Source: an uncultured Acidobacteriota bacterium
Lineage (GTDB): Bacteria; Acidobacteriota; Thermoanaerobaculia; UBA5066; Gp7-AA6
Length of the DNA: 64,000 nt
Direction: 5' to 3'
NCBI GenBank assembly: GCA_963764025.1
Contig: CAVXRK010000011.1
Location: forward strand, 320,999-384,998
This document shows positions 1 to 64,000 of this stretch, one piece after another; within the stretch, counting starts at the first letter, position 1; each line of letters opens with the position of its first letter. Position numbers and translations under genes: made by a program. A model generated the notes under the pieces. That model was not told the origin of the DNA and did not search any database. It saw nothing but the letters and a program-made list of their open reading frames with translations.

Positions 1-1107
1 GCGGCCGGAAGCGGCCCGGGCCTGGAAGTACTCGTGCACGGCGACGAGGTACCAGAGCGATGCGTCGACGGAGTTGAATTCGGGCTGAACTTTTCCGTCG
101 GGAAAGAGGTTCGGCAGCATGCCCTCCGAGACCGCGCCCGCCCACTGGACGAGGATCTGCCCCGCCTCGTCGAGGCGGCCCGTCGCGAGGCACAGGCCGC
201 GGAGGGCGATGAAGGTGTCGCGTCCCCAGTCGGTGAACCACGGGTAGCCCGCGACGACGGTCCGGCCCTCTCCTCGCCGCACGAGGTAAGCGTCGGCCGA
301 GCGCTCCAGCCGGCCGGGAAAAGCCGCTCGGCGCGTGCGCTCGGAGCTTCGGAACGTCTCGACGGCAGCCTCCGCGGAGCCGGTGCCGAGGGCCGCCTCG
401 TGCCCCTCCGCCGCCATGAGCCAGATCGCGTCGCCCCGAGCGAGGTCGAACGTCAGGGTGCCGGGCGACGCAAGGTCCTCGGAAAAGTCGAGGCCGCGGG
501 CGCGCTCTTCCGCGTAGAGGAAGTTGCGGTACCAGTCCGGAGAGTGCGCGTAAACGCCGTTCGAGAGCATCGTGATGGCGGGCTGGTTGGCGTAGGGACG
601 CAAGCGCAGGCGGCCTTCCTCCGCCGAGGCCGAATCGGCATCGAAGCGAAAGCCCGGGTTCTCGTGGTGAAGCGAGTGATAGTCGCGCCCCGAGAGGAAG
701 GGCCGGACCTCGAGCGTCACGACGCCCGTCCCGGACAGCAGCTTCCACGCGACAGCCGCAGCGGAGGAACCCTTCAGGACCAGGATCTCCTGAGCGATAC
801 GCGTGCCGTCCGGAAGGCGGAACGTCCAGCGCGGCCAGGGCTCGAGCTCGAAGCGGTCGGCGCGGGAGGCGCCGTCGGGGTAGGTGACGTCGGGGCCGTA
901 GGCCTGCGAGGTGATCGCGTAGCGGCCCGAGGACGTCGTGACCCAGGCGTCGAACCCGTTGACGAGGACGACGCGGCCCGTCGGCGGCGTCGTCGCCGTC
1001 AGGAGGAGCGCGTGATAGCGGCGGGTCCGGATGCCGGCGACCGTGCCGGAGGCGAAACCGCCGAGGCCGTCCGCTTCGAGCCACTCCCGGGTCAGGGCGT
1101 CGCTCAT
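1..1107 (-). CDS. glycogen debranching enzyme (amylo-alpha-1,6-glucosidase family), N-terminal part; C-terminus lies off the window
   Basis: Minus-frame translation starting at the ATG at 1107 reads MSDALTREWLEADGLGGFASGTVAGIRTRRYHALL...VLVNGFDAW, typical of the bacterial/archaeal GDE N-terminal domain. The plus-strand 34..1401 ORF is its antisense. Confidence 0.7.
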   Translation of the reverse strand, partial: MSDALTREWLEADGLGGFASGTVAGIRTRRYHALLLTATTPPTGRVVLVNGFDAWVTTSSGRYAITSQAYGPDVTYPDGASRADRFELEPWPRWTFRLPDGTRIAQEILVLKGSSAAAVAWKLLSGTGVVTLEVRPFLSGRDYHSLHHENPGFRFDADSASAEEGRLRLRPYANQPAITMLSNGVYAHSPDWYRNFLYAEERARGLDFSEDLASPGTLTFDLARGDAIWLMAAEGHEAALGTGSAEAAVETFRSSERTRRAAFPGRLERSADAYLVRRGEGRTVVAGYPWFTDWGRDTFIALRGLCLATGRLDEAGQILVQWAGAVSEGMLPNLFPDGKVQPEFNSVDASLWYLVAVHEYFQARAASGR

Positions 1108-1126
1108 CGCCACAGGCTATCCCGTC

Positions 1127-1336
1127 TCACGCGGCGCGAGAGCGCGACAGCTCGATGCGTACCGGCCGGATCGCCACCCGTCCGCAAGCGCAACCGAAGA
1201 CCTCGGCGAGGATTCCCGGAAACTCGTCGTCGCGCGCGTAGGGCCCGTCGCCCGCCCAGCTCAGGTCCAGCCGATCGATCTGCGGCCGCATCTCGTTTCC
1301 GCAGCCCAGGCACCGCATTTCTCTCGCGTCGGTCAT
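1127..1336 (-). CDS. small hypothetical protein with CxxC...CxC zinc-ribbon-like motifs, 69 aa
   Basis: ORF sits 20 nt upstream of the GDE start and has high GC3. It carries CLGC and CAC cysteine pairs. No recognisable family. Confidence 0.35.
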   Translation of the reverse strand: MTDAREMRCLGCGNEMRPQIDRLDLSWAGDGPYARDDEFPGILAEVFGCACGRVAIRPVRIELSRSRAA

Positions 1337-1387
1337 CGATCACCCCCTTGCCCTCCATTCGATGCCGCTCCCACCCCCCCGTTTCCT

Positions 1388-1540
1388 GGGGTCAGCCCTG
1401 AAAGAATGAAAGATTGCCGCGAACCGAATCTCCGACGGCTCAGTTCGACGAGGAAAACCGGCCTCGATGGGGGTAGGACTCTCGAGCGAGTTTCAATCTT
1501 TCAGGACTGGCCCCAAGTGTCAGACTTTCAGGGCTGACCC
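1388..1540. repeat. REP doublet (REPIN-like): GGGGTCAGCCCTGAAAGAATGA on the left, two inverted copies on the right, with an internal GAAAGATTG/CAATCTTTC hairpin
   Basis: The same about 22-nt GGGGTCAGCCCTG(A/C)AAG(T/A)(C/A)TGA element recurs at 11412-11460 and, inverted, at 12451-12500, flanking a RAYT gene. Confidence 0.75.
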
Positions 1541-2550
1541 TACTCGACGAGCTGGAGGAGGTGGCCGTCGGGGTCGGCGGCGAGGAGGGCGCGGGAGAAG
1601 CCGAGGACCGGGGACGGGAGGGTGACGAGGCCGGGCGAGAGGAAGCCGGCGCGAGCGGCGAAGAGGGCCTTTTCGGCGGCGGCGGCGTCGCGGACCCGAA
1701 GCTCCGTCTGCCAGGCGACGAGGTCGTTCGAGCGGACGTCCGGCGGACGCGGGCGTCCGTCCGACGGGGCGAGGTACTCCAGGAACTCGATCCCCGGCCC
1801 CTGCGCCGCCCGCAGCGCCGTGATCCGCAGGCGCGCGCCGAAGACGTTGTTGAGGTGCTCCTGCTCGGTGCCGTAGTTTTCGGCGCCGCCGGCGACCTTC
1901 ATCCCCAGCGCATCCCGGTAGAGCGCGAGGCTCCTCTCCGTGTCGGACACGACGATCGCCGTGTGATCGATTCCGAGAAAGAGGCGCCCCTTCTCCTGCC
2001 ACCGCGGTTCGCCTTTCCCCGGCGGAAACGCCAGGATCTCGAGGGCGTGGCCGTCGGGATCCTTGAAGTAGAACGCCTCGATCCCGCCGGCGTTCGGATT
2101 CCAGTCCGGAAGCCTCTGCGGGCCGCTCGAGGCGTGCCGCACGCGGTGCTCGCGCAGCCGCGCGTAGGCCTTCGCCATGTCGGAGACGATGATCGCGACG
2201 TGCTGGAACCAGCGGTCGTTCGAGCGCGAGTCGACCGGGACGGGACGGCCCTCCGGGGCGAGGTACCCGACGAGCTCGATCCGCTCCGACCCGAGCCGCA
2301 GCGTCGCCGACCGGACTCGCAGCCCGAAGACGCCCTCCAGGCGTTCCCACGCCTCTCCGGCGAGCTCGACCTCGCCGACCTTTTCGAAGCCCAGCACCTC
2401 CGAGTAGAACGCGACGGACCGGTCGAGATCGGAGACCGGGATCGTCACCGAATCGACGGCCGTCACGAGCGGCTGGCCGAGGGCCGCGGCCGCCGCCGTC
2501 CCGACGACGAGGATCGCGACGGCAAGGGCCCGGGTAAGCGGCCGCCTCAC
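1540..2550 (-). CDS. secreted VOC (glyoxalase/bleomycin-resistance/dioxygenase) family protein with two tandem VOC domains
   Basis: GTG start at 2550. N-terminal signal peptide RRPLTRALAVAILVVGTAAAAALG. Two VOC-like halves (VTIPVSDLDRSVAFYSEVLGF... and LGIDHTAIVVSDTERSLALYRDALGM...). Overlaps the GMC gene by GTGA. A REP follows the stop. Confidence 0.7.
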   Translation of the reverse strand: MRRPLTRALAVAILVVGTAAAAALGQPLVTAVDSVTIPVSDLDRSVAFYSEVLGFEKVGEVELAGEAWERLEGVFGLRVRSATLRLGSERIELVGYLAPEGRPVPVDSRSNDRWFQHVAIIVSDMAKAYARLREHRVRHASSGPQRLPDWNPNAGGIEAFYFKDPDGHALEILAFPPGKGEPRWQEKGRLFLGIDHTAIVVSDTERSLALYRDALGMKVAGGAENYGTEQEHLNNVFGARLRITALRAAQGPGIEFLEYLAPSDGRPRPPDVRSNDLVAWQTELRVRDAAAAEKALFAARAGFLSPGLVTLPSPVLGFSRALLAADPDGHLLQLVE

Positions 2551-4115
2551 GCCAGGCGTTCCTTGAGGTGCTCGCCGACCCGCAGCGCGTTCGCGATGAT
2601 GGTCAGCGCCGGATTTACGGCCGCCGAGGATGGGAAGAAGCTGCCGTCGACCACGTAGAGGTTGTCGAGGTCGTGCGCCTTGCAGTTCGAATCGAGCGCC
2701 GAGGCTTTCGGGTCGCGGCCGAACCGGGCCGTTCCGTTCTGGTGCGCCACCCCCGCGAGCGGGATCTTCTCGCCGAGAAAAAGGCTCCGTCCGAAAAGGC
2801 CGACGTGGCACGAGTCCCCGTGCATCGAGCACTTGCGCTGCTTCTGCATTGCCTTCTGCAGGGTCGCGCGGAGGCGCTCGTGCGCGGTCACGTTGTTGGG
2901 CTGGTACTTGAGAACGATGTTCCCGTCGCGGTCGAGCGTCACGCGATTCTCGGGGTCCGGCAGGTCCTCCGAGGTCAGCCAGAAGTCGAGCGAGTGCTTC
3001 GCCATCATCTCGAGCGTGAATCCCGGCGCGATCGCCGGCGCGCCCGCCGAGAGCGCGATGCCATCGAGCTTGCCGACGAAGGAGATGTGGCCCATCGGGT
3101 AGCCCCACTCCTTCGACGCAAAGTAGTAGTCGTTGACGCCGAGCGTCTTCTGGAAGACGGTCGGATTCGGGCAGCGCGAGATCGCGAGCAGGACCGAGTT
3201 GACGTGCCCCATGTAGTGCCGGCCGACGACGTCGCTCGAGTTCGCGAGGCCGTTCGGGTGCCTGTCGTTCGCCGACCGAAGGAGCAGCGCCGCCGAGTTG
3301 ATCGCGCCGCAGGAGACGACCACGACGTCGGCCGTGTATTCCTCGGGCACGCCTTCGCGCTCGACCGAGACTTTCGTCACACGGCGGCCCCCGGCATCGG
3401 TGTGGAGGCGCGTGACCTTCGCGCCGGTCTGCAGCGTCACGTTCGGGTGCGCCAGCGCCGGGTCCACGCAGCAGACCTGGGCGTCCGCTTTGGCCTGCAC
3501 CAGGCACGGGAACCCGTCGCACGACTCGCAACGGATGCACCTGGAAGCGCGGCGGTCCTTCTCGTTCAGCATGATGCCGAGGGGCACGTGGAAGGGGCGC
3601 AGGCCCTGCTGCTCGAAGTCGTCCGAGAGGTCCTGGATGCGGGGCTCGTGCGAGACGGCGGGGTGCGGGAAGGGGGTCGAGGCCGGCGGCTCCGTCGGGT
3701 CTTCGCCCCGGGTGCCGTGGACGCGGTAGAGCTCCTCGGCTTTCGCGTACCAGGGCTCCATCTCCGCATAGGAGATCGGCCACGCCGGCGAAACTCCCCC
3801 GTGGTGCCGGATCTCGCCGAAGTCCTCCTGGCGCAGGCGAAAGAGGGCGGCGCCGTAGAACTTGGTGTTCCCCCCCACCCAGTAGTTGGTGTGGGGATGG
3901 AGGTCCTTGCCGTGCTTGTCGCGCCAGACTTCCTTCGTGGCGTATTTGCCGTCGACGTTGACGGCCTTCGAGCTCCAGTTGTCCTTCTCGCGGGGAACGA
4001 AGTCGCCGCGCTCGAGCACCAGGATCCTCTTGCCCGTCGGCGCGAGCGACCAGAGCAGCGTCCCGCCCCCGGCGCCCGTGCCAATGATGATCACGTCGTA
4101 GTGGTTCGCGGACAT
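2547..4115 (-). CDS. GMC family FAD-dependent oxidoreductase
   Basis: MSANHYDVIIIGTGAGGG Rossmann motif with an AGGGGA SD upstream. C-terminal GMC_oxred_C-like HDLDNLYVVDGSFFPSSAAVNPALTIIA. Confidence 0.85.
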   Translation of the reverse strand: MSANHYDVIIIGTGAGGGTLLWSLAPTGKRILVLERGDFVPREKDNWSSKAVNVDGKYATKEVWRDKHGKDLHPHTNYWVGGNTKFYGAALFRLRQEDFGEIRHHGGVSPAWPISYAEMEPWYAKAEELYRVHGTRGEDPTEPPASTPFPHPAVSHEPRIQDLSDDFEQQGLRPFHVPLGIMLNEKDRRASRCIRCESCDGFPCLVQAKADAQVCCVDPALAHPNVTLQTGAKVTRLHTDAGGRRVTKVSVEREGVPEEYTADVVVVSCGAINSAALLLRSANDRHPNGLANSSDVVGRHYMGHVNSVLLAISRCPNPTVFQKTLGVNDYYFASKEWGYPMGHISFVGKLDGIALSAGAPAIAPGFTLEMMAKHSLDFWLTSEDLPDPENRVTLDRDGNIVLKYQPNNVTAHERLRATLQKAMQKQRKCSMHGDSCHVGLFGRSLFLGEKIPLAGVAHQNGTARFGRDPKASALDSNCKAHDLDNLYVVDGSFFPSSAAVNPALTIIANALRVGEHLKERLA

Positions 4116-5008
4116 CAGCGTCCCCTTTCCGCGGCGGCCGCGGCCGGCGGGCCGCACGGCCTGTAGCCGCACCGGAAGATGCAGCGATGGTCGTTCTCGT
4201 GGTGGAGCTTGGCGCAGAGAACCGAGCTCGTGCCCGAAAGTCGCAGGCGCAGCTTCGGCCGCCGCGAGCATGCCGATCGGCGGGAGCGACGAAGTAGATC
4301 CAGAGGTGGTCCCAGCGCCTGGCGGCCGCCGCCGAGCCGAAGGTCCGGGCCGGGTTCATGCTCATGCCCGAAATCGGGGCCTCGAACGTGATGAAGAGCG
4401 CCACGCAGGCACCGGCGGCGATCCCCGTGAAGCGGTTGGTCCGCGGATCGTTCGAGACCGCGAGCACCACGGTCATCAGGATGAAGGTGATGAGGACCTC
4501 GGCCCCGAAGGCGCGCGCGAGGCCCGCGGGCCCGGGGATCGTGACGGCGAAGTTGACCGCCGGGTGCCGCACCGCGGCGGAGAGGAAGAGCGCCGGCGAC
4601 GAGGCAGCCGGCGAACGCCCCGACAAACTGCGCGGCCGCGTAGAAGAGCGCATCCGGCGCCTCCACCTTGCCGAGCCGCAGGAACGTCAGTGTCGTCGCG
4701 GGGTTGATGTGCGCCCCGCTCCGCTTCCCCCAGCCCGAGTAGATGATCGCGACGGCCGTCATCCCCATCGCCAGGCCCATCAGCGCCCGGCGGACGAAGG
4801 GATCCGGCAGCGCGGCATGGACGGCCGATCCGGGATGCTCGAGGAGCGCGGCGAAGACGCAGGCCGACACCATGAAGAGCCCGAGGAGCGCTCCCTCGAT
4901 GAGGTATTCCGGCCAGTGCGCCCGAAGGGCCGCCGCCAGGACGCCGTTTCGCGGCGCGCGGCGGCCCGGGGCCGCCGGGGAGTCGAGGGATTCGCGCAGG
5001 GCCGTCAC
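4115..5008 (-). pseudogene. aquaporin/MIP family channel, disrupted by at least two ±1 frameshifts (possibly sequencing errors)
   Basis: The N-half (frame of 4115..5008) carries SGAHINPATT (NPA box 1). The C-half continues in the frame of the 1540..4653 ORF with GMSMNPARTF (NPA box 2). The TGA stop overlaps the ATG of the GMC gene. Confidence 0.6.
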
Positions 5009-5093: not shown

Positions 5094-6240
5094 TTGCCTC
5101 AAATGCCGTTGCTCCCGCCAGCCGAGCTGCCCGCGGACTATCCACCGCTGCTCGCTCTCGCTGAACGGCTCGGGTTCGTCCCTTCGATCTTCCCCGCGCA
5201 GGCCATCCTGCCGCGCGCGATCGAAGCGGAGACGCGACTCCTCCGCGCCCTCCTCATCGAGCCCGGGGCCCTCGGCTGGGAGCGCAAGGAAGAGATCCTC
5301 GTCGCCGTCGCGGCCGCCCGCCGCAACCGGTACTGCCTCGCGGTGCACGCCCGGGTTCTCGGGAACCTGGGCTGCGCCGCGCCGGACATCGCGGCGCTGG
5401 CCGAGGGGCCGCTTCGAGTCATTCGAGAAGAGCCGGGCCGCCCTGCTCGACTTCTCCGTCCGCCTGGCTCTCGCGCCGCTCTCGACCGGGGCGCCGGATA
5501 TCGAGCGGCTGCGGGCGGTCTCCGCGTCGGACGAGGAGATTCTCGAGGCCGTGCAGACGGCCGCCCTGGCGGAGTTCCTTTGCGCGCTCTCGACGGGTCT
5601 CGCCGCGGAGGTCGACGTGCCGATGCCACCCGCGATCCTCGCGGCCGTCGAGCCCGCGGCGGCGCGGGCATCGGCCCCGGCGGTCCCGCGCGCGCCCGGT
5701 GCTTACCTTCGCGCTGTGCCCCTCGCCCCGGACGCCTTCGGTCCGTTCGGGGAGCTCAAGGGCCGCTTCGGATTCGTTCCGGCGCTCTTCCGCGCCCAGA
5801 CGCTCACGCCCGGGGCCCTCGAAGCCGAAATCGAGGCACTGCGCGAAATCCTCCTGACGGAAGACGTCCTGAGCCGGCGGCAGAAGGAGCTCGTGCAACT
5901 CGTCGTCTCGGCGTGGAACCTCGACACCTACGGCGTCGCGCTCCACACCGAGCTCCTGCGCGGCCTCGGCGTGCCTCCCGAGGCCTCGGACCGCGTCGTG
6001 TCCGACCACCGGAACGCGGACCTTTCGGCGGCGGACAGGGCCCTTCTCGATTTCGCCTGGAGGATCACCGCCGAAGGGCCGGCCTACGGCGAATCCGACG
6101 CCGCGGCCCTGCGCGCGGCCGGGTTCTCGGATCCCCAGATCCTCGAGGCGATTGTCGTGACCTCGCTCGCCGGCTTCCTGAGCACGCTCGCGGCGGGACT
6201 TAACCCGAAGCCCGACTTCAAGCCGCGGCGCGACCTCGTC
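5094..6240 (+). CDS. tandem carboxymuconolactone-decarboxylase (CMD)/AhpD-like peroxidase-related protein; +1 shift in a GGGG run near 5409; 3' end uncertain
   Basis: Domain 1 is in frame 0 (FVPSIFPAQAILPRAIEAETRLLRALL...RRNRYCLAVHARVL). Domain 2 is in frame 1 (FVPALFRAQTLTPGALEAEIEALREILL...DTYGVALHTELL). Removing one G from GAGGGGCCG joins them. Confidence 0.65.
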
Positions 6241-6262
6241 GCCGAACGCGCCGCCACGGCCG

Positions 6263-6875
6263 CGCAGCGAGGCCGAGCGCGCCGCCGATCCCGACGCGGA
6301 GCTCGTCGCGCGCGCCCGCGGCGGCGACGTCGCAGCCTTCGAGGACCTCATCCGCCGCAACCAGGCGCGTATCTATCGGAACCCTCGCCGGCCTGACGGG
6401 CAGCGCCGAGGACGCCGAGGACTGCTGCCAGTCGGCGTTCGTCAAGGCGTTCCGGAAGATCGGCGACTTCGCCGGCGCCTCCCGGTTTTCGACCTGGCTG
6501 ACGCGGATCGCGATCAACGAGGGTCTCGATCGCCTGAGGAGCCGCCACCCGTCGGAGCCCCTCGACCTGGCGGCCGCCGGGGACGAGGAGTTCCGTCCTT
6601 CGCCGGGCGAAGCCTGGATCGAGGACCCGGAGCGGCTCTATGCCCGCGAGGAGACGCGGCGGCTCGTCCGGCAGGAGCTGGCGCGCCTGCCCGTGGCCTA
6701 CCGGACCGCCGTCATGCTGCGCGACATCGAGCAGCTCTCGACCGCCGAGGCGGCCGCGATCCTGGATCTGCCCGTGCCGACGCTGAAGACGCGGCTGCTG
6801 CGCGGACGCTTGATGCTTCGCGAAGCCCTGGCGGCGCACTTCGCCGCCGGACCTCCGGGGGCCCGCCCTGCTTAG
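6263..6875 (+). CDS. ECF (sigma-70 family group IV) RNA polymerase sigma factor; frameshift near 6385 (AA run); start codon not identifiable
   Basis: Region 2 reads DAELVARARGGDVAAFEDLIRRNQARIYR, then after the shift TLAGLTGSAEDAEDCCQSAFVKAFRKIGDF...STWLTRIAINEGLDRLRSRH. Region 4 reads AYRTAVMLRDIEQLSTAEAAAILDLPVPTLKTRLLRGR. No ATG/GTG/TTG lies in any frame between 6181 and 6290. Confidence 0.7.
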
Positions 6876-7107
6876 CTGCGACGACGTCCGGGCCGAGCTC
6901 TCGAACCTCCTCGACGAGGACGTGGCGCCGGAGGTGCGCCGAGCGCTCGAGCACCATCTCGCCGACTGCCGGACGTGCCGGATCCTCTACGACTCGACGC
7001 GCAAGACCATTCGGATCGTCACGGACGCGGGGGCGTGGGAGCTTCCGGCGGGAGCGTCGGAGCGGCTGACCGCGAAGATCCTCGCCGCGCTCGAGAAGAC
7101 CGACTAG
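6868..7107 (+). CDS. ZAS-type (zf-HC2) anti-sigma factor, cognate to the upstream ECF sigma factor
   Basis: LLSCDDVRAELSNLLDEDVAPEVRRALEHHLADCRTCRILYDS carries the HxxxCxxC redox zinc motif, as in RsrA/ChrR. Overlaps the sigma-factor stop. The only upstream in-frame candidate start is a CTG at 6868; an ATG is internal at 6922. Confidence 0.65.
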   Translation: MLSCDDVRAELSNLLDEDVAPEVRRALEHHLADCRTCRILYDSTRKTIRIVTDAGAWELPAGASERLTAKILAALEKTD

Positions 7108-7741: not shown

Positions 7742-8003
7742 GTGTTTTCCTGCGAGGCGCTCCGCCAGGCGCTGTCCGACCTCCTCGACGGGGAGGTCGA
7801 TCCGTCCGTCCGCCGGGAGGTGGAGATCCACCTTCAGGACTGCGCGGCCTGCCGGATCCTCTACGACTCCGCCCGGAAGACGCTCGCCGTCGTCTCGAAC
7901 GTCGGCACCTTCGACCTGCCGGCGCCGGTGTCGGAGAGGCTGGTTCGCCGGATCCTCGAGACCGTGCTCGACCCGCGCCACTCCGTCCCGGCCGCCTGTC
8001 CCG
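7742..8003 (+). CDS. second ZAS (zf-HC2) anti-sigma-like domain with no stop codon; continues by a +1 shift into the downstream sigma54 activator (possible fusion)
   Basis: GTG start. MFSCEALRQALSDLLDGEVDPSVRREVEIHLQDCAACRILYDSARKTLAVV is paralogous to the 6868 gene. The frame stays open to 8473. The sigma54 activator has no start codon of its own. Confidence 0.5.
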
Positions 8004-8010
8004 TCCCGGA

Positions 8011-10415
8011 CCGCGAAGGGAGACCGCCTCGAGGCCCTCCGCGCCTACGGCGTTCTCGACACCGGCCCCGAGGGGGCGTTCGACGACCTGGCCGACCTCG
8101 CGTCCCGGATCTGCCAGGCCCCGATGGCGCTGATCAGCCTCGTCGACCGGGACCGCCAGTGGTTCAAGGCCAGGGTCGGTCTCGACATTTCCGAAACCCC
8201 CCGCGAGATCGCCTTCTGCGCCCACGCGATCCTGGGTTCCGAACTGATGGTCGTCCCGGACGCCCGCGCCGACGCGCGGTTCGCCGACAACCCGCTCGTG
8301 ACCGGCGACCCCGGGATCCGGTTCTACGCCGGCGCGCCCCTCATGACCGACAAGGGCCAGGCCCTCGGAACGCTCTGCGTGCTCGACCGGGTTCCCCGCG
8401 CCCTCACCCACGACCAGACCGCGGCCCTCGCCACCCTCTCGCGCGAGGTGGTCGCCCGGCTCGACCTGCGTAGGGCCAACGCCGAGCTCGAACGGGTCGT
8501 CGCGGGAGAGCGCGCCGCATCCGAGGCGCTGCGGTCGAGCGAGGAATTCAAGACGCGGATGATCGAGTGCAGCCGCGACTGCATCAAGGTCCTCGACCTC
8601 GAAGGCCGGCTGCTCTCGATGAACGCCGGCGGAATGGAGGCCCTCGAGATCTGCGACATCGGCCAGTACCTGGGCGCGTCGTGGATCGACTTCTGGAAGG
8701 GCCCGGACCGCGACTCGGCGCGGGCGGCGGTGGAAGCCGCACGCAACGGCGGCATGGGTCACTTCGTCGGCTACTTCGAGACCGTTCAGACGCGGCAGCC
8801 TCGCTGGTTCGACGTCGTCGTCAACCCGATCCTCGGCTCGGAGGGCCGGCCCGAGAGCCTCCTCGCCGTCTCGCGCGACGTCACCGAGCGCAAGCGCTCG
8901 GAGGACCTTTTCCGGCGGCTGACGGAGGCCACCGCCGCGACGACGGGCGCCGGATTCTTCAAGACGCTCGTGGAGACCCTGGCCACGGCGCTCCGCGTCC
9001 GGTACGCGTTCGTCACGGAGTGCGGTCCGGGCGACCCGACGGCGCGGATGCTCGCGTTCTGGAAAAACGAGTCGATCGCGGAGAACCTCGAGTACGGCCT
9101 GGCCGGCACGCCCTGCGAGGCCGTCATCCGGGGCGAGGTGCGGTTCTACGCGGACCGGCTGGCCGAGCGCTTTCCCGAGGACACGGGCCTCGTCGACTGG
9201 CGGGCCGAGAGCTTCCTCGGCATCCCGATGGTCGGTCACGACGGCGTCGTCATCGGCCATCTCGCGGTTCTCGACGACCGGCCGATGAGCGAGGCGTCGA
9301 TCGAAATCTCAGTCCTGCGGATCTTCGCCGACCGCGCCGCGGCCGAGCTCGAGCGGCTGCGGGCGCAGACCGAGCTCGAGCGCCTCAAGGATCGTCTGCA
9401 GGCCGAGAACGTGTACCTGCAGGAAGAGATCCGCACGCAGCACAACTTCGAGGAGATCATCGGAAACGCGCCTCCCCTGCTCGACGCCCTTTCGAAGGTG
9501 GAGCGTGTCGCGCAGACGGATTCGACCGTGCTGATCGCGGGCGAGACCGGCTCGGGCAAGGAGCTCTTCGCGCGCGCCATCCACAGCCGGAGCGCCCGGC
9601 GCCAGCGGCCCCTCGTCAAGGTCAACTGCGGAGCGATCCCGGCCGGCCTCGTCGAAAGCGAGCTCTTCGGGCACGTCAAGGGCGCTTACACGGGAGCCCT
9701 CGACAGGCGCACCGGCCGGTTCGAGCTCGCCGACGGCGGCACGATCTTCCTCGACGAAATCGGCGAGCTTCCGCCGGAGACGCAGGTCAAGCTGCTGCGC
9801 GTGCTGCAGGAACGGGAGTTCGAGCCCGTGGGTTCGTCGCGCACGATCAAGGTCGACGTGCGGATCATCGCGGCGACCAATCGCGACCTCGAGGAGGAGG
9901 TCCGGCGCGGGCGCTTCCGCGCCGACCTGCTCTACCGGCTGAACGTGTTTCCGATCGCCGTCCCCTCGCTGCGGGAGCGGCGGGGAGACATCCCGCTGCT
10001 CGTCGCCTTCTTCCTGACCGGCCTCGCCAAGCGGCTCGGCAAGCCGCTCGAAGGTTTCACGCGTTCGTCCATGAACGAGCTCTGCGCGTACTCCTGGCCC
10101 GGCAACATCCGGGAACTGCAGAACGTCGTGGAGCGAGCGGCGATCCTCGCGCCCGGGCCGACGCTCGAGGTGGAGCGGGGCCTGCTGCGGGGCGATCCGG
10201 CGGCGGCGACATCGGCGTCCGCATGGACGGCCCCGTCCGGCGGCGGCGCGAAGCTCGTCGAGATCGAGAAGTCCCACATCCGCGAAGTCCTCCGCTCGAC
10301 CCGGGGCGTGATCGAAGGTCCGGCCGGCGCCGCCCGACGCCTCGGCCTTCATCCCAACACGCTTCGGAGCCGCCTCAAGAAGTACGGCATCGAGCCCCGC
10401 CACGAAGCATCGTAG
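8011..10415 (+). CDS. sigma54-dependent transcriptional activator with a GAF-PAS-GAF sensor, AAA+ sigma54-interaction domain and Fis-type HTH
   Basis: GAF: [51 protein letters not shown]: [29 protein letters not shown]+: [22 protein letters not shown]-terminal HTH: [23 protein letters not shown]. No ATG/GTG/TTG upstream in frame. Confidence 0.8.
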
Positions 10416-11512: not shown

Positions 11513-12496
11513 ATGTCGCGTGCGCCGCGGATCGAAATCGCCGGAGGCGTCTACCACGTGATCGCGCGCGGGAACGAACGGCGCGACATCTTTCGAGACG
11601 ACTCCGACCGGCATCTCTACCTGGCGCGCCTCGCGGAATGCCGTGACCGATACCGATTCGGAGTCCTCGCCTACTGCCTCATGCCGAATCACGTCCACCT
11701 CGCCGTCGAACGAGGCCCGGTTCCCCTTTCAAAGATCATGCTCGCGCTCCACTCCTACTACAGCCAGAAATTCAATTTTCGACATGAGCGTGTCGGGCAC
11801 CTGTTCCAGGGCCGATACAAGGCTTTTCTGGTCGAACTCGACCGATACCTCGCTGCGCTCGTTCGCTACATCCACCTGAACCCGGTCAAGGCCGGCGTCG
11901 CCGATCGACCCGAGAGCTATCCGTGGTCGAGCGACCGGTGGTATCGCGAAGGTGGCGGTCCAAGCTGGCTCGACGTCGACTTCGTCCTCGCGCGTCTTGC
12001 GCCCAGCCGGTCCAGGGCCTGCGCCGCTTACCGGCGGTGGATGGGGTCCGGTGAACCGGACGACTACGACCGCGCGCGCCCGATCGGCCGCGTCGTGAAG
12101 GGCGACGAGAAGTTCGCCAAACGCTCGATGCGCGAGGCCCGCGTCACTCTTCCCAGAAGAAGTGGTTGGACGCCGTCGAGGTTCGCCGCCGCCGCGAGCG
12201 CGTTTCAGGGATTCTCACTCGGCCGGCTGAAGGGACCGTCCCAAGCCCGAGCGGAGTCACGGGCTCGGCTGATCACGGTCTTCGTCGCGAGGCGCGATCA
12301 TTCGATTCCAGCGTCGGCGCTGGCCAGGTGCTTCGACCGCGACGAATCCGCGTTCGCGCACGGCCTCCGAAGGCTCGAACGTGCGATCGCACGAAATCCA
12401 GAGCTCGCAAGGCACGTCGAGCGCGTGGCCGCCGCGCTGGGCCCCGAAGCGTCAGACTTACAGGTCAGGCCCCAGATTTCAGACTTTCAGGGCTGA
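11513..12496 (+). mobile_element. REP-associated tyrosine transposase (RAYT; IS200/IS605 Y1 HUH family) with a C-terminal extension
   Basis: RIEIAGGVYHVIARGNERRDIF...VLAYCLMPNHVHLAVE (HuH motif)...HLFQGRYKAFLV (catalytic Tyr region). Flanked by inverted REP doublets. The ORF reads through into the right REP (…SDFQG*). Confidence 0.8.
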
Positions 12497-12500: not shown

Positions 12501-13946
12501 AGGTCGAGGAGGGAGTTGAAGGAGCCGTGGGGGTCGGCCTCGCGCAGCGAATGGGAGGGGTCGGGGAGCCAGCGGGCCCCGTCGACGACGAGCTTGTAGC
12601 GGTGGCGGCCGGGCGGCGGGGCGGGGAGAGCCGGCGCGCCACACGCCGTCCGCCTGCCGCGCCATCGGAAGGCGCGACGCGTCCCAGCCGTTGAAGTCGC
12701 CGGCCACGGCGACCGACGTGGCGTCGTCGTCGTGGAAGGTGAAAACGAGGCGGCCGTCCTCGACGCGGGGCGGCCCACCGACTCGGCCGGCGCCGGCGTG
12801 CGCCTCCCGCCGCGCGACCGCCACCGCCGCGGCGGGGTCCACGACGCCATGCCCCTGGCGCAGCGCCGCGATGCCCGGGACCGGGCTCGCGCTCGCGAGC
12901 AGGATCCGGCGGACTTCCGCCGGCGTGAGCGCCGGATTGGCCTCGAGCATCTGCGCGACGACCGACGCGACGACCGGCGCCGCGAACGAGGTCCCGTCCA
13001 CGTGCTGATAGTGCGCAGCCACGATCTTCTCGGCGCGAAGCCGCTCTTCGACCCAGCTCCGCAGTGCCGCCGCCTGACGCGGGAGCTCCGGGATTCCCCC
13101 ACGGACCTCGTCCGCGAGACGCGCCAGGCGGTAATCCGGCGCCGATGCCAGCCGTGTCAGCGTCTGCGCGCGCCGCCAGGCCGGCGTGCCCGGCAGGATC
13201 GGCGCCGCGACCCACATCGCCGGAGCGATCAATTCCGGCTTGACGAGACCGTCGGCCGTCACGCCGAAGCTCGAGCAGTACGCCGCGAGGTGCCGCCGCT
13301 CGGGATCGTTTGCGTCGTCATATCCGCCGACGGCGATGACCGAGGGCGCCGTGGCTGGAGGCAATACGCGGGGCGCGGGTCCGCACCCGGAATTTCCCGC
13401 GGCGGCCACGAGCACCATGCCGCGGGCGACGGCCGCCTCGGCGAGCTGGTTGATCCGGCTCTCCGCGAGCGTCCGGTCCGCGTCGCCGCCGAGCGACATG
13501 CTGACGATCCGTATCGCGTGCCGTTCGTGGTTCGCGAGCACCCACTCGAGTCCGCGCTCGATCGCGTCGTCGGTGATTCGCCCGTCCCGCCCCACCCGCA
13601 CCAGCACGAGCGCCGCCTCGGGCGCGAGCCCGCGGTAGACGCCGTCGGAAAGCAACCCGCTGCCGGCGGCCGCGACGCACGTCTGCGTGCCGTGCCAGCA
13701 GTCCGGGGCCGGTATCTCCGCGTTCTCCAGCATGCCCTGCGGATCGTGGACGTCGTGATACGCCCGGATCCGCTCGCCCGGCTCGGTGATGTCGGGATGG
13801 GGATGGAAGCCTGAGTCCAGGAAGGCGACCGTCACCCCGCGGCCGCGGAGCGTCCCGTCGTCGCCGAAGCGCTCCGGGGTCGAGACCACGGCGAACCGAT
13901 TGGGCGCGTGGCCGTGGCCCGCGTGCAGCTCTCCCCCGTCGCTCAT
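12479..13946 (-). CDS. cytoplasmic S8 subtilisin-like serine peptidase with a C-terminal CBM48/E-set (glycogen-binding-like) domain; one frameshift near 12650
   Basis: Catalytic triad in context: VAFLDSGF (Asp), HGTQTC (His), GTSFAAPVVAS (Ser). No signal peptide. C-terminus reads RLVFTFHDDDATSVAVAGDFNGWDASRLPMARQADGVWR, then continues in the adjacent frame as ALPAPPPGRHRYKLVVDGARWLPDP (shift in a GG run). The stop is supplied by a REP. Confidence 0.75.
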
Positions 13947-14006: not shown

Positions 14007-14858
14007 TCAGCGAGAGGCTGGCAGGACGACGCCCTGGAAGAGTCCCTCGGCCACCCAGTCGCGCAGCCACCGGAAGAGCTGGTCGCCCGCGGAGCCCTGG
14101 AGCCCACGCGCCGCCGTTGCGACGGCCTTGCCGAACGGCCGGCCCTTGACCAGTGCAGCGAGGAAGTCGTGGGCCGGCTTCGAGAGGTCGAGGCGCCAGA
14201 CTTCGTAGTTCTTCCGATAGACGGCGATCCAGGTGGGGCGCCGTCCGGTCGGCGGATGATCGTGATCGTCGTCCTTGACCGACTGCAGGTAGGCGTTGAC
14301 GGGATACGCGAACGCCGCGACCCGCAGGGCCGCCGACGGACGGAGCACGACCCCGGGCCAGGCCGCCTCCGGGACGCGCGCGATCTCTTCGGCCGGCCAG
14401 GCGGGCGACTCGGGCGCGTCGAAGACCTCGGTGACGAGGCTTTCGAGGCGGGCGAGGTCGGCGACGAAGGCCTTCCGGCGGATGCCCTGCGAGCCCCGGA
14501 TGAATTCGGGAAGGCGGTCGCCCAGGCGGTTCAGGGTGTAGCTCCGGGAGGGGTGCGCCGCGACATAGCGCGTCACGAGGTCCGCGAAGTCCTCGGCTCC
14601 GAGCAGGTGCGCCACGGCCGGAAAGTCGTTCTCGAGCGCCTCGACCATGCGGAGCAGATACATGCCCTGGTAGACGCCGACCCGTTCGACCGGCGTCAGC
14701 GTCTTCGACGGCCGGATCACCCGCGCGATCTCGTCCGGCTCGAGCTCGGCGCGCGCAGCGGGCGATGTCACGGCCTCCTCGGCCGTGCCCGGCTGCTCGA
14801 TGACCGCCTGCATCCAGCGCTGGAGGCGCGGGAGCGGCAGCTCAAGAGGCCGCGGCAA
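14007..14858 (-). CDS. DUF2063-family protein (BufC/MbnC-like partner of a DUF692 MNIO enzyme)
   Basis: 283 aa, immediately downstream of and overlapping the DUF692 gene. Paralogous to the 18072..18932 gene (shared LPFL...LARLE, YVAAHP/YLGVFP regions). Confidence 0.7.
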   Translation of the reverse strand: MPRPLELPLPRLQRWMQAVIEQPGTAEEAVTSPAARAELEPDEIARVIRPSKTLTPVERVGVYQGMYLLRMVEALENDFPAVAHLLGAEDFADLVTRYVAAHPSRSYTLNRLGDRLPEFIRGSQGIRRKAFVADLARLESLVTEVFDAPESPAWPAEEIARVPEAAWPGVVLRPSAALRVAAFAYPVNAYLQSVKDDDHDHPPTGRRPTWIAVYRKNYEVWRLDLSKPAHDFLAALVKGRPFGKAVATAARGLQGSAGDQLFRWLRDWVAEGLFQGVVLPASR

Positions 14859-15771
14859 TCGCCTTCTCCTCGTTCCGGAACCGCCGCGCCTTGAGGGCCT
14901 CCGCGTGGACCTCCTCGAACGACGGGATCTCGCCGTCCCACTCGAAGAGCGTCGCGACGTTGCCCGTCCGCGCGACCGCGTGGCGATAGAGCTCCCAGAC
15001 CTCGGGAATCGCCCGGTCGCTGTGCGTGTCGAGGATGTGCGTGCCCTTGTTCGTGTGGCCGGCGAGGTGGTACTGCGCCACGCGCGACGGATCGATCGCG
15101 TCGAGGTAGAGCTTCGGGTCGAATCCGTGGTTGAACGCGCTGACGTAGACGTTGTTGACGTCGAGGAGCATGCCGCAGTCGGCCTTCTCCATGAGCCGGC
15201 CGAAAAACTCCCACTCCGGCATGCTCGAGGCGGAAAACTCCGCGTAGGTCGACGCGTTCTCGAGGATCAGGGGCCGCTCCAGAACGTCGGAGACGATTCT
15301 CACGCGCTCGGCGACGTGGGAAAGCGCCTCCTCGGTGAGCGGCATCGGGAGCAGGTCGTGCGTGTTTCGTCCGGAAACGCCGGTCCAGCACAGGTGGTCC
15401 GACACCCAGAGGGCGCGGGTGCGGGCGGCGAGGGCTTTCAGTTTCGCGAGGTATCCGTGGTCGAGCGGATCGGTCGAGCCGATCGACATCGACACGCCGT
15501 GGAGCACGACCGGATAGCGCTCGGCCACCTGGTCGAGGACCCAGGCGGGCCGGCCGCCGGTGTCGAGGTAGTTCTCGGAGAGGACCTCGAAGAAGTCGAT
15601 CTCGGGCTTCTTCTCGAGGATGTGGGGATAGTGGACCGTGCGGAGACCGATGCCGACGCCGAGGTCGGGAAAGTTCCAGCGGTTTCGGGTGAGCGGCTTC
15701 ACGTGAGACTCGATCTTACGATTGGAAAGTGAACCGGGGGGCGCGGCCTCGGCCGCGACCCCCCGCTTCAC
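14842..15771 (-). CDS. DUF692 multinuclear non-heme iron oxidative enzyme (MNIO; MbnB/BufB-like)
   Basis: LGVGIGLRTVHYPHILE...VLHGVSMSIGSTDPLDHGYLAKLKAL...[11 protein letters not shown]...LILENASTYAEF...GMLLDVNNVYVSAFNHGFDP...YHLAGH..LDTHSDRAIPEVWELY...TLFEWDGEIPSFEE. An alternative GTG start lies about 15705. Confidence 0.85.
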   Translation of the reverse strand: MKRGVAAEAAPPGSLSNRKIESHVKPLTRNRWNFPDLGVGIGLRTVHYPHILEKKPEIDFFEVLSENYLDTGGRPAWVLDQVAERYPVVLHGVSMSIGSTDPLDHGYLAKLKALAARTRALWVSDHLCWTGVSGRNTHDLLPMPLTEEALSHVAERVRIVSDVLERPLILENASTYAEFSASSMPEWEFFGRLMEKADCGMLLDVNNVYVSAFNHGFDPKLYLDAIDPSRVAQYHLAGHTNKGTHILDTHSDRAIPEVWELYRHAVARTGNVATLFEWDGEIPSFEEVHAEALKARRFRNEEKAIAAAS

Positions 15772-15781
15772 GACGGTGAAG

Positions 15782-17655: not shown

Positions 17656-17754
17656 GGAGCGAATAGTAGGACAGACCGCAGACGGCAGACCGCGGACGGC
17701 AGAAGGAAAGGACGGCAGAGGCGCCGGGCCGTCTGCCGTCCGCCGTCCTGACCG

Positions 17755-19780: not shown

Positions 19781-19784
19781 TTGA

Positions 19785-20243: not shown

Positions 20244-20299
20244 ATCAGCGTCCTCGGAAATTCGATGCCGGCGCAGCGCCCGCGTTTCCGAAACGAAAC

Positions 20300-20400: not shown

Positions 20401-20402
20401 CC

Positions 20403-43988: not shown

Positions 43989-43994
43989 CCCGCC

Positions 43995-44597: not shown

Positions 44598-44630
44598 GCC
44601 CGCCGGACGGGAAATAATCGGCCACATCTC

Positions 44631-56431: not shown

Positions 56432-59400
56432 ATGGAGGTCACGCGTCGAGGGTTCCTGAAGGCCACCGGTCTCGGAACCACCATCGCCCTCGGGTTCGAC
56501 GTCTCCACGGCGCGGGCCGAAATGCGGGAGCTCAAGGTCTCCCGCACCACCGAGACGCGAAGTACCTGCCCCTACTGCGCCGTCTCCTGCGGGATGATCA
56601 TTCATACGCTCGGAGACAAGGCCAAGAACGCGACGCCCGCCGTCGTGTACGTCGAGGGAGACCCGGACCATCCCATCAATCGAGGCACCCTCTGCCCCAA
56701 GGGGGCGACCGTCAAGGACGACATCAACAGCAAGACCCGCCTGATGAAGCCGCAGGTCCGGCGGCCGGGCTCGGACAAGTGGGAGGACATCTCCTGGGAC
56801 GAGGCGATCGCCAAGATCGCCCGCCACATCAAGGACACCCGCGACAAGAACTTCGTCGGCAAGAACGCCAAGGGTCAGGTCGTGAACCGCAATCCGGGCA
56901 TGGCCATGATCGGCGGCTGCACGGATACGACCGAATTCAACTACCTCTACTGGAAGTCCGCGTCGGCCTGGGGGGTGCCGTACCGCGATACCCAGGCCCG
57001 GGTTTGACACGGCCCCACGGTGGCCAGTCTGGCCGCCACGTTCGGTCGGGGGGCGATGACGAATGGATGGGTCGACATCAAGAATGCCGACGTCGTCCTG
57101 TGCATGGGCGGCAACCCCGCCGAGAACCATCCCTGCGGATTCAAGTGGGCCATCGAGGCCAAGAAGACCCGTAACGCAAAGCTCGTCGCGGTCGATCCGC
57201 GCTTCACACGGACGGCGGCCGTCGCGGACCTCTACTCCCCGATCCGCACGGGAACCGACATCGCCTACCTTCTCGGCATCATCCGCTACGCGATCGCGAA
57301 CAACCGGTACCACGAGGAGTACGTCAAGACTCTTCACGAACGCGCCGCTGTCTGATCAATCCACGAGTTCAAGTTCGACGAGGGGCTCTTCTCCGGTTTC
57401 GACGAGGCGGCCGGCAGCTACAAGCGCGACACCTGGGCCTACCAGCTCGACCCGAAGACGGGATTCGCGAAGACGGACCCGACGCTCCAGGACCCGCAAC
57501 TGCGTCTTCCAGCTGCTTAAGAAGCACGTCGACCGGTACACGCCGGAGATGGTCGAGAAGATCTGCGGGACACCCGAAGGAGACGTTCCTGAAGGTGGCC
57601 GAGGTCGTGACGTCGACCGGCAACGCCGCGCGATGCGGCACGATCATGTACGCGCTCGGCTGGACGCAGCACTCGATCGGCGTGCAGATGATCCGGACGG
57701 CCGCGATGCTGCAGCTCCTGCTCGGCAACGTCGGGCGGCCCGGCGGCGGCGTCAACGCGCTCCGCGGCCACTCCAACATCCAGGGGGCGACCGACACCGC
57801 CGGCGTCTTCGACATTCTCCCCGGCTACCTCAAGACGCCGCAGGCCCAGTGGCAGACCCTCAAGGAGTACGGAAGCGACGCCAACGTGCCCCAAGCCCCT
57901 CGGCCCCTCCATGAACTACTGGCAGAACTACCCGAAGTTCATGGCCTCGGTCCTCAAGGCCTGCTACGGCAAGGCGGCCACGAAGGAGAACGAGTTCGGC
58001 TACGGGTGGCTGCCCAAGATCGACGGGAACTACTCCTGGATGTACATCTTCGACGACATGTACCGCGGCAACTCGACTCGCGCCGGCGGGCAGGAGCCGG
58101 GCCCCGAGGGCCTCATGACGTTCGGGATGAACCCGGTCGGGATCGGCCCGAATTCGCCGAAGATGGTCGCCGCGCATGCAAAGCTGAAGTGGCTCGTCGT
58201 CGTCGAGAATCACGAGGTCGAGACCGCGACCTTCTGGCGGGCTCCGAAGGAGTACGGCGCGCCGGATCCCTCGAAGATCCAGACCGAGGTCTTCCAGCTT
58301 CCCGCATCCAATTTCGCCGAGAAGGACGGGTCCTTCACCAACTCCGCGCGCTGGATCCAGTGGAAGTGGAAGGCCGTCGATCCCCCGGGACAGGTCAAGA
58401 CCGACCAGGAGATCCTGGCGCGCATCTTCCTCGCGGTGCGCGAGCTCTACCGGAAGGAGGGCGGCGCGTTCCCGAGGCCGTGCTCAACGTGGACTGGAGC
58501 TACACGAACCCGGCGGCGCCGGACCTGCCGAAATCCTGAAGGAGCTCAACGGCAGGGCCCTCGCCGACATCCCGGACCCGAAGGACAAGACGAAGGTCTC
58601 AAGACCGCCGGGCAGCAGCTCGACGGCTTCGGCCAGCTCCAGGACGACGGCTCGACGATGTGCGGCAACTGGCTGATGTCGGGCGTCTACACGGAAGCCG
58701 GGCAACATGGCGCAGCGCCGCGTACTCGACCGACGACCCGAGCGGCCTCGGCATGTTCCACAACTGGACCTTCTCCTGGCCGGCCAATCGCCGCGTGATG
58801 TACAACCGCGCGTCGGCCGACGCCGAAGGCAAGCCCTGGGACCCGACACGCGTCGGGATCAAAGTGGAACGGCCGAAGTGGGTCGGCGACGTCCCCGACA
58901 TGAAGCCGGATGCGCCCCCGGGGACGTTCGGGGCTTTCATCATGCTGCCCGAGGGCTCGGCCGCCTGTATCGCGCCGGCCTGAACGACGGCCCCTTCCCG
59001 GAACACTACGAGGCGGTCGAAGCGCCGGTCGCAAAACCTCCTTCATCCGAAGGTCACGTCCAACCCGGCTCCAAGAAATTCAAGTCGGACAAGGACGTCT
59101 ACGGAAACGCCGCGGACTTCCCGATCGTCTGCACGACCTACCGGCTGACCGAGATGTACCACTACTGGACGAAGCACATCAATCGCCTCAACCAGCTGCA
59201 GCCCGGGTTCTTCATCGAGATTCCGGAGGCGCTCGCCAAGGAGAAGGGCATCGTCAACGGAGGCAAGGCGCGGGTCACCTCCGCGCGCGGCTCGATCGAA
59301 GGGGTCGCCATGGTCACCAAGCGCATGCGCCCCCTCCAGATCGACGGCAAGCAGCACTGGCAGATCGGCTTCCCCCTCCACTGGGGCTACGAGGCAACGG

Positions 59401-62360: not shown

Positions 62361-62362
62361 CC

Positions 62363-63339
62363 CTAGCCGAGCTGCGGCATGTCCATCGCGACGGCGGCCT
62401 CGTTCGACGGCCGCAGCGCCGCGTAGGCACCCGCCAGGCGGTCCTGCGTCCAGCCGAGAAAGATTCCGTCTCCCCGGTAGGCGGCCGCGCCCGGACCGAG
62501 CTCCACCAACGCGATCGTGCCGGCCCCTTCGTCGGCGCCCACCGTCAGCCGCCATGCCGAGAGCGTGACGGACGCTTCGCGGGAGCGGATCGGGAATCGA
62601 TCGAGGGCGAGGCCGCGAGGATTCGTCAACCCTTCGACGATCGTTCCCGCGGGCCCGGTCAAGGCCGCGCCTTGCAGGAGAAGATCTGGGCGCGGTCGTC
62701 GGTCCGGAGGATCAGATCGCCACCCACTTGCACGGCTTCGCGGGCGCACGGCCCGGACGTCTCCCCGTTCTCGTCCCTGCAGGCGTCGGCGCCGGCGACG
62801 TCGCCGAGATAGACGCAGCCCTTCGCCGCACCCCGGTCCGCGGTGATGCGGACCCGGGCGCCGGGCGGCGTCTCCATCGGTGGCGTGCCCGGAGTCGGCT
62901 CGGGCATCGGGGCCGTCGACGGAGGAGCCGGGAGCGTCGCGGACGGTCGAGGAGCCGTCACGGTCGGCGTTGGTTCCGTGGGCGTGGCGGGAGGGGCCTT
63001 CGCGGAACCCGTTCCGTGCCCCGAGCAATCGTAGGCCTCCCCGACCGGTCCGTTCATCAGAAGCGTGTCACCGCCCGCGAGTCGGACCTGATATCTCAGA
63101 CATTCCTCGAACGTCGGCTGCACGGTCAGGCCGCAGCCTCTCTGCGAATCACGCGAATCGACTCCCCGGATGAGCCGACAGGCGGCGACGTCCCCGCGAT
63201 TGGTCGTCACCCTCACGTCCCAGATCGAGCTGGTCGCCTGGTACGTCTGCTTGTAGTCGGTGCAGCCCGAAACGACAGCGAGTGCGGCGAATACCGCGAG
63301 CGCCGAAACCGCGCCGGTTCGGAGCCGTCTCCCGCTCGA
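62363..63339 (-). CDS. Cys-containing lipoprotein with a Pro/Thr-rich linker; probable frameshift near 62660 joining two ORFs
   Basis: GTG start. Signal RRLRTGAVSALAVFAALAVVSGC (lipobox). Two Cys-containing domains separated by PPATPTEPTPTVTAPRPSATLPAPPSTAPMPEPTPGTPP. The downstream frame (LTGPAGTIVEGLTNPRGLALD...) runs to the stop at 62363. Confidence 0.45.
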
Positions 63340-63428
63340 ATGAAACGACGGACGCACTCCTCCAAGCGTATCAAGTTGAGCCTTCGCCGCAACGGTCGAC
63401 CCGCCTGCCCCGCCGGCGCGACCGCCGA

Positions 63429-63890
63429 TCAGCCGCCGGCGTTGCGTCGCCGGGAGGAGGCCACGAGCCGCTCGCTCGTCACGAGGGCCCTCCGGTGGGT
63501 GGCCCGGCCGATCTCGCCCCCGCCATCGCGCGCGACGACCTCGAACCGATGGAGCTTGCCCTCGCGCCCCACGTAGCGCGCGGTCGCCGTCACCCGGGCG
63601 CCTTCGGGGGTCGCCGCCGAGTGCGTCACGTCGACGGTCACGCCGACCGAGAGCTCGCCGGGGCCGAGAAACGGCCGGAGCACGCGCGCGGCGGCGAGCT
63701 CCATGAGGGCTACCATCCGCGCCGTCGCGAGGACCGGCGGGAAAGCGTCCTCCGGACCCAGCCTCAAGGCGCTGGCGAGGTCGGAGGCCGCAACGACGAG
63801 CTCCACCGACGCCGTCGCGCCGATCTCGGGTGCCGCGCCCTCCGCCGTCGGCGGCGGCGGCGGCGGGATTTCCGCGCGACGTCATGCCCC
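63429..63890 (-). CDS. hotdog-fold thioesterase family protein; one shift in a GGG run near 63850
   Basis: AAGGAGGGGG SD + ATG (MTSRGNPAAAADGGG), then after the shift AAPEIGATASVELVVAASDLASAL...FPPVLATARMVALMELAAARVL...GVTVDVTHSAATPEGARVTATARYVGREGKLHRFEVVARDGGGEIGRATHRRALV. Confidence 0.65.
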
Positions 63891-64000
63891 CTCCTTCTCG
63901 ACGAAACGGTAGAAGGAGGCCCCCCGGACGTTCTCGTCGATCCCGAGCTTGCGGTGGATGGGCGGGAACGCGCGCTGGTCGCAGTCCATGCGCTCGCACA
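63888..64000 (-). CDS. C-terminal fragment of an unidentified protein running off the window end
   Basis: ...MDCDQRAFPPIHRKLGIDENVRGASFYRFVEKEGA*. The stop overlaps the thioesterase ATG (ATGA). Confidence 0.3.

Follow-up and report, generated by a model that had tools for sequence, protein, structure and literature searches.

Clustered single-base indels that interrupt genes in an uncultured Acidobacteriota contig are very probably assembly artefacts

Long-read assemblies made from Nanopore or PacBio CLR data can carry single-base insertions and deletions (indels) that split conserved open reading frames (ORFs) for which full-length orthologs exist. How severe the damage is varies with coverage and polishing, metagenome bins of low coverage being the classic case (PMC9262707, PMC12007338), and it is the target of the IDEEL test and of proovframe, Homopolish and Kastor. 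A 64-kb stretch of contig CAVXRK010000011.1 from an uncultured Acidobacteriota bacterium (the window, 64,000 nucleotides in full) resembles such assemblies, with ±1-nt frameshifts in at least 18 genes. Unlike the usual long-read case, the indels here are not centred on homopolymers and lie in kilobase-scale patches at a density of about 1%, beside error-free sequence, instead of being scattered over the whole contig. The indels are present and clustered, they are missing from the near-identical relatives available, and the genes beneath them are under normal purifying selection. We conclude that they are very probably consensus artefacts of a locally ill-polished metagenome assembly, probably built from long reads, and that the affected genes are probably intact in the organism.

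Two other described situations produce similar sequence. Apparent frameshifts caused by collapsed haplotypes in a diploid eukaryote vanished with allele-specific assembly (PMC8445201). Two of the patches described here likewise lie in a strain-variable island for which a sister sample holds alternative contigs; unlike in that eukaryote, the mixture here would be of co-occurring bacterial strains, whose mixing we infer. Reductive genomes, such as those of Mycobacterium leprae and recently host-restricted symbionts, also contain many frameshift-interrupted genes, and their decay is marked by relaxed selection, many nonsense mutations, mixed-size deletions and lesions bounded by genes. The window shares the interrupted genes with them, but these signs of decay are not seen in it.

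Because ORF lists say little at the 69% G+C of the window, reading frames were followed with a codon-usage Viterbi model trained on clean ORFs. Ortholog-guided alignment then replaced models based on third-position G+C only (GC3) and codon hidden Markov models (HMMs), because the HMMs overlooked close compensating shifts (for example 57326/57348/57361); they also scored the heavily damaged 28.7–30.3 kb as non-coding. The alignments used a frameshift-aware protein-to-DNA aligner that permits 2-nt and 4-nt codons, run with ortholog proteins from homolog searches (P identifiers) and syntenic loci (L identifiers: L001 for 49–64 kb, L002–L012 for 0–33 kb). The nearest relatives by both DNA and protein are metagenome-assembled genomes (MAGs) of uncultured Acidobacteriota/Thermoanaerobaculia (at most 87% in a genome-contig scan), and L005, a short-read MAG, is syntenic with the window over 3.6–25 kb. 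Genes were annotated with Pfam on intact or frame-stitched ORFs.

Merged over the whole window, the evidence gives about 98 ±1-nt sites, with an extra base at 66 and a missing base at 31. An initial annotation made from the window's letters alone had reported at least 17 frameshifted genes; the sites exceed those it listed, a ±1-nt correction is needed within about 5–30 nt of every coordinate it gave, and all seven motifs that it quoted occur near their positions. Damage also extends to genes that it had not named, namely a zf-HC2/sigma-54 activator gene (8006), a cupin gene, a second HbpS-like gene and the gene that follows the M50 peptidase gene. Its description of the frameshifts as pervasive has to be given up, since 86 of the 98 sites fall in five patches that together span 7.8 kb, or 12% of the window, at 9–13 sites per kb:

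4140–4582, minus strand: patch D, about five one-base indels in an aquaporin (MIP) gene and at its junction with a GMC oxidoreductase gene, from alignment to L005
19360–19802, minus strand: MNIO #2 (MbnB/TglH/ChrH family), three to four one-base indels, from the L005 ortholog and the window's own MNIO #1
20555–23881, minus strand: patch A, about 44 indels and one in-frame stop (22354) in genes for a lactonase of about 855 residues (DUF and two SGL domains), a cupin and HbpS-like #2, from alignment to L005 ORFs
28214–30099, plus strand: patch B, about 17 indels and stops at 29296 and 30063 in the C-terminal half of an M50 peptidase–HlyD fusion gene and in the next gene, from L003, L004 and L012
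57326–59071, plus strand: patch C, fdnG with 10 extra and 6 missing bases (16 one-base indels) and free of in-frame stops, from P0001, P0002 and P0004

The remaining 56 kb holds 12 sites (0.21 per kb), and the variance-to-mean ratio over 1-kb bins is 7.1 (p ~ 1e-59). No frameshift was found at 36.4–52.2 kb, where relatives cover 36.4–39.9, 43.96–45.1 and 49.3–52.2 kb and the codon model alone covers the rest. Segments used as negative controls gave zero in-gene frameshifts, both at 13.9–16.6 kb and 24.8–28.2 kb, where six to nine references were concordant, and at 49–57 kb and 59.1–61.9 kb against L001. The Viterbi path changes frame at 5404, ~6372, 12628, 16873, 19375, 19493, 35754 and 52233 and switches densely at 20.4–23.4 kb and 57.5–59.0 kb. 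Patch limits ignore gene limits: fdnG is undamaged over its first third and the M50 gene over its first half, and fdnH/I/E are clean throughout. The patches also contain two or three in-frame stops (22354, 29296, 30063), which would fit a few substitution errors alongside the indels.

Near-identical contigs bear directly on whether individual indels belong to the organism. L082 is about 98% identical to the window over 30–39.9 kb, with only three or four one-base gaps. It is without the extra C at 35758, and its intact HtpX (P0121, 319 aa) is 99% identical; the gap at 38809 is most likely an error of L082 itself, because the window ORF there is continuous with a uniform coding signal. L083, found by exact look-up of the STAS protein, matches the window at 99–100% identity in the flanks. 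From 28220 to 28771 it lacks each of the eight window indels and has the same base count as L003, L004 and L012 at these sites; over 28.2–28.8 kb the two contigs differ by about 2% substitutions, against 0–1% in the clean flanks. The extra base at 23797 is likewise not found in L005, L083 or L085, so that at 35758, 28220–28771 and 23797 the indels are absent from independent relatives, as expected of artefacts. The lesions are not common to near-identical contigs, as decay would have them. The relatives carry private indels of their own: L083 has about 20 at 25.6–27.5 kb, a stretch in which six to eight orthologs support the window, and L002 and L004 have three each at 30.3–31.4 kb, where it agrees with L003 and L008. 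By this comparison, private one-base indels are a defect that sister long-read assemblies share. A Logan contig, whatever its read type, matches 43961–45118 at 99.9% and gap-free.

The frame-corrected sequence has been conserved. The ratio of nonsynonymous to synonymous substitution rates (dN/dS) of the fdnG patch against L001 is 0.10, with intact neighbours at 0.09–0.31, and that of patch A against L005 is 0.29 and 0.16, with neighbours at 0.20–0.42. After correction, the FdnG patch shares 89% identity with its two closest orthologs, and the intact orthologs are 83–88% identical among themselves over the same segment. Relaxed selection was thus not detected in the patches, where dN/dS spans 0.10–0.29, nor was an excess of amino-acid change in FdnG. 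Every ortholog examined is intact (FdnG, P0001–P0120; HtpX, P0121–P0240; lactonase, P0241–P0249; and the loci L001–L012). Once frames are corrected, the low dN/dS, full-length domain matches and ortholog-like conservation are as expected of genes broken by artefact. Comparison with orthologous loci, which the initial annotation had proposed as a check, thereby found intact orthologs and pinned the frameshift sites. Its preference for assembly error over gene decay is upheld by the near-identical relatives without the indels, the intact orthologs, the retained purifying selection and the private indels of sister assemblies.

These observations suggest how the damage may have arisen. Most of the contig would be accurate, and five stretches of 0.4–3.3 kb would be near raw-read quality, with about 1% random single-base indels and a few substitutions; a few isolated one-base errors would lie outside them. 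The events are almost all ±1 nt, occur in both directions, are random by base and homopolymer context and have similar density in the five patches, and such an even indel density of about 1% in kilobase-scale patches beside clean sequence suggests effectively unpolished stretches. Polishing there may have had few or conflicting reads to work with, through low coverage or through divergent co-occurring strains or haplotypes. Each error would shift the frame and leave gene callers with fragments, missing starts and false 'fusions'; on this account the organism itself would have intact genes for MNIO #2, FdnG, the lactonase, M50-HlyD and HtpX, among others. The assembly would be a long-read one, probably of Nanopore/Flye type: relatives named MFD... 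are Microflora Danica MAGs, and the near-identical ENA contigs share Flye-style names. Microflora Danica used Nanopore R10.4.1 reads only, metaFlye and one round of Medaka (PMC12313526), and an earlier benchmark by the same authors reports that bins below about 40x need more polishing, with indels fragmenting gene calls (PMC9262707).

Homopolymer error was the mechanism that the initial annotation had proposed, in a flow-based or long-read form acting at G/C runs, and a genome-wide, systematic miscalling of such runs by flow-based or early nanopore chemistry would account for those isolated sites that do lie in short runs (5404 GGGG, 33540 TTT, 35758 CC, 38809 GGGG, 52244 GGG). The context of the events as a whole argues otherwise. 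A G/C run of three or more lies near 49% of the 98 events and 45% of background positions (p=0.26), and one of four or more near 9% against 12.5%. Among unambiguous 1-nt indels relative to near-identical relatives, 23 of 34 (68%) are at run length 1, compared with 55% of background (chi-square p=0.51), and A/T bases are about as frequent as expected. By either test, therefore, the enrichment in runs over background that homopolymer-type error (454, Ion Torrent, Nanopore R9) would produce was not found. Many inserted bases in the nucleotide views differ from both neighbours, the 66 insertions and 31 deletions are mostly outside homopolymers and patchy, and a 16-kb stretch of ordinary homopolymer content is free of frameshifts. 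We consider systematic homopolymer miscalling very improbable; because the window is 69% G+C, nearly any site adjoins a short G/C run, hence the earlier impression of homopolymer context.

Real, recent pseudogenisation of the lactonase, cupin and HbpS genes, M50-HlyD, fdnG, the aquaporin and MNIO #2, with functional neighbours, is likewise very improbable. It would group indels by locus, as observed, patch A does lie in an accessory island missing from several relatives, and there are in-frame stops inside patches. Yet only a long neutral period could load a gene with 16–44 indels, and such a period is unlikely because no excess of substitution accompanies them: dN/dS and protein identity are as in intact genes. 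Lesions start and stop inside genes, so that patch and gene boundaries do not coincide, and L083, near-identical with about 2% substitutions at 28220–28771, has none of the eight indels there. Nearly all events are ±1 nt with an excess of insertions; bacterial pseudogenes are deletion-biased and have indels of mixed sizes. A chimeric or mosaic consensus, in which the polisher merged 75–90%-identical alleles of divergent haplotypes or paralogs, is a special case of the artefact that we favour, and a possible one, though we doubt that it applies generally. The window is 100% identical to L083 up to 20476, beyond which identity drops abruptly to about 78% and gaps are many; at ~1300–1950 of L083, MNIO #2 turns MNIO #1-like mid-gene, either by allelic replacement or because this short contig is chimeric; sample ERZ25039463 holds two short alternative contigs for the island locus (L083, L084); and at 25500–30000 (GAF-HlyD/M50), a locus that appears strain-variable from these alignments, the window and L082 are about 80% identical although about 98% identical elsewhere. 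Mixed haplotypes are therefore a plausible contributor at patch A and MNIO #2, given the strain-variable island, the split alternative contigs and the identity break at 20476. Patch C and the first part of patch B, however, are without allelic divergence (L083 is only about 2% different at 28.2–28.8 kb), and alternating identity blocks are not evident in the alignment of the window with L083. That the patches instead reflect real hypervariability within the population, as islands of allelic replacement with sharp breakpoints (20476) in which some indels are segregating inactivated alleles, we regard as barely credible.

Certain points weigh against the artefact explanation. All of the evidence consists of assembled consensus sequences rather than reads. 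The isolated sites 8006, 12638, 6262/6377 and 61941/62323 have one reference each and may reflect genuine differences in gene structure. Patches A (mostly), C and D were compared only with distant orthologs (75–91% protein identity) and by selection statistics. The otherwise near-identical L083 differs from the window by about 20% in patch A and is just as frameshifted there, which implies a locus-specific factor and not random coverage alone. The 2:1 excess of insertions is atypical of Nanopore consensus errors.

Three other candidates were rejected. Programmed frameshifting or transcriptional slippage, which relies on one conserved slippery site, does not suit genes that have up to 16–31 sites of either direction, share no motif among these sites and have orthologs in frame. 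DNA modification as a basecalling problem was entertained on account of a DndB-like gene in the window, but modification acts on motifs genome-wide and not in patches. Cross-mapping of paralogs fails as a general cause, the paralogs here being only about 70% identical.

Turning to the individual patches, the reading of single genes across the junctions, also made in the initial annotation, agrees with stitched Pfam matches in MNIO #2, the alpha/beta hydrolase, HtpX, MIP and SGL. In MNIO #2 the frameshifts are at 19360/19376, 19497 and 19802, and the stitched protein matches PF05114 over 2–262/263 with 333 bits. The gene belongs to the second of two bufferin-type loci for ribosomally synthesized and post-translationally modified peptides (RiPPs), both on the minus strand. 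Locus 1 (14010–16204) comprises a Cys-rich precursor with CKG repeats (15785–16204), an MNIO and a DUF2063 protein, and locus 2 (17758–19790) a BufA1-like precursor (17758–18076), a DUF2063 protein and MNIO #2; HbpS-like genes lie nearby.

Patch A had been described as gluconolactonases, and here that account needs amending: there is one gene of about 855 aa, with an N-terminal domain and two SGL domains, an architecture that is intact in dozens of homologs (P0241–P0249 among the intact ones). A near-identical intact lactonase was sought, and the best match is only 78% identical. The surrounding island (17700–24150), which carries an HbpS-like gene, the second MNIO locus, the lactonase, the cupin and HbpS-like #2, is present in L005 and L083 and absent from L002–L004, L006, L008 and L010, where the hydrolase adjoins zf-HC2/STAS genes. 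The spacer just 3' of the lactonase gene (20300–20395) contains a long imperfect inverted repeat, GGGGTCAGGTCT...AGACCTGACCCC, that is the same in L083.

Patch B sites coincide across L003, L004 and L012, and the L004 ORF has both M50 and HlyD domains. In patch C the sites are identical against P0001, P0002 and P0004, with a nucleotide view against L001. One further interruption of fdnG is not damage:

57005–57007, plus strand: TGA selenocysteine codon of FdnG, in the context ...QARV-TGA-HGPTVASL...

FdnG being formate dehydrogenase-N, this is its selenocysteine (U) position, QARV-U-HGPTV. Gene callers split fdnG at this TGA in all relatives, and the homologs are called from just past the codon. 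Against L005 ORFs, the frameshifts of patch D are at 4140, 4234/4250, 4284/4289 and 4582, with Viterbi switches at 4161, 4270 and 4591, and the stitched aquaporin matches MIP over 42–211/222.

Outside the patches, isolated sites affect the following genes:

5404–5408, plus strand: two-domain CMD gene, isolated frameshift at a GGGG run, from Pfam and codon usage only
6262–6380, plus strand: ECF sigma factor gene, two extra bases (~6262 and ~6377) with the N-terminus in a third frame, from alignment to a continuous CMD–sigma ORF of L005
8006–8009, plus strand: isolated frameshift between zf-HC2 and a GAF-PAS-sigma54 activator, an FS+ at 8006 against a continuous 906-aa ORF of L005, from one reference
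12638–12641, minus strand: S8 peptidase gene, isolated frameshift near the C-terminus, an FS+ at 12638 against a 513-aa ORF of L005
16871–16874, minus strand: alpha/beta hydrolase gene, isolated missing base, an FS- against nine independent references (L003–L011)
35758, plus strand: HtpX (M48 peptidase) gene, split by an extra C, a base not in the ~98%-identical contig L082
52225–52244, plus strand: second ABC permease gene, two extra bases 19 nt apart (ARLT>PWGGR>GIAIF), from alignment to the L001 ortholog
63836–63885, minus strand: FlK-type thioesterase gene, probable frameshift between start codon and body, from reading frames at the start

In the CMD gene the match to the first domain, read in frame +2, stops at HMM position 63/84 (nt ~5403), the second domain follows in frame +0, and the Viterbi junction is at 5404|5405; L005 gave no test of the site at 5404, its N-terminus being different or shorter. 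The sigma factor frame has no start codon, and its Sigma70_r2 match begins at HMM position 12, nt 6381. In L005 (reverse strand, ~1136–3058) a single uninterrupted ORF encodes the C-terminal CMD domain together with the ECF sigma factor, and without the two indels 5100–7104 of the window would read as a CMD–ECF sigma fusion followed by a zf-HC2 anti-sigma factor. Stitched, the activator protein has zf-HC2, GAF, PAS and Sigma54_activat domains. The fusion of an anti-sigma-like zf-HC2 domain to a GAF-PAS-sigma54 activator (906 aa in L005) occupies 7752–10392 of the window, split at 8006.

The stitched S8 peptidase has its CBM_48 match cut at 51/83. Stitching gives an almost complete Abhydrolase_1 match for the hydrolase (4–244/245), M48 for HtpX (3–185/186) and BPD_transp_1 for the permease (3–178/184). 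The ATG of the thioesterase has a strong Shine-Dalgarno sequence (AAGGAGG) and begins 'MTS' (63885) as in L001, but the conserved PEIGATA... body lies in another frame; from residue 5 onward the alignment to L001 is free of frameshifts, and a frameshift at the start is plausible from the reading frames.

The wider gene content of the window includes a glycogen debranching enzyme, a glyoxalase, the GMC oxidoreductase and aquaporin, the two-domain CMD protein, ECF sigma and anti-sigma factors, sigma-54 activators, an IS200-type transposase and the S8 peptidase. The two bufferin-type RiPP loci (Cys-rich precursor, MNIO, DUF2063), the alpha/beta hydrolase, HbpS-like proteins, the large lactonase and the cupin are joined by STAS, GAF-HlyD and M50-HlyD proteins, a two-component system, a DndB-like protein, LemA, HtpX and an EAL protein. 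A glycosyltransferase, two acetyl-CoA synthetases, transporters, an ABC sugar system, FdnGHI/FdhE and the FlK-type thioesterase complete the set. The IS200-type Y1 transposase gene lies at 11531–12145, and matching DNA also occurs in L002, where it adjoins a glycogen-debranching gene.

Because the errors are patchy and not at homopolymers, correctors that act on homopolymers only would leave most of them in place, and quality scores averaged over the contig would conceal them. Frame-aware annotation or re-polishing is needed for any pseudogene counts, 'fusions' or missing starts taken from this assembly, and probably for those from sister long-read MAGs of this kind too. Read at face value, a third of the window's genes would be dead, including a second bufferin-type MNIO, a selenocysteine formate dehydrogenase, HtpX and a membrane protease. 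We hold with high confidence that these dead-gene calls should not be believed and that the frameshifts indicate no new biology. MNIO #2, FdnG, the ~855-aa lactonase, M50-HlyD, HtpX and the other affected genes should be treated as intact in this organism pending reads.

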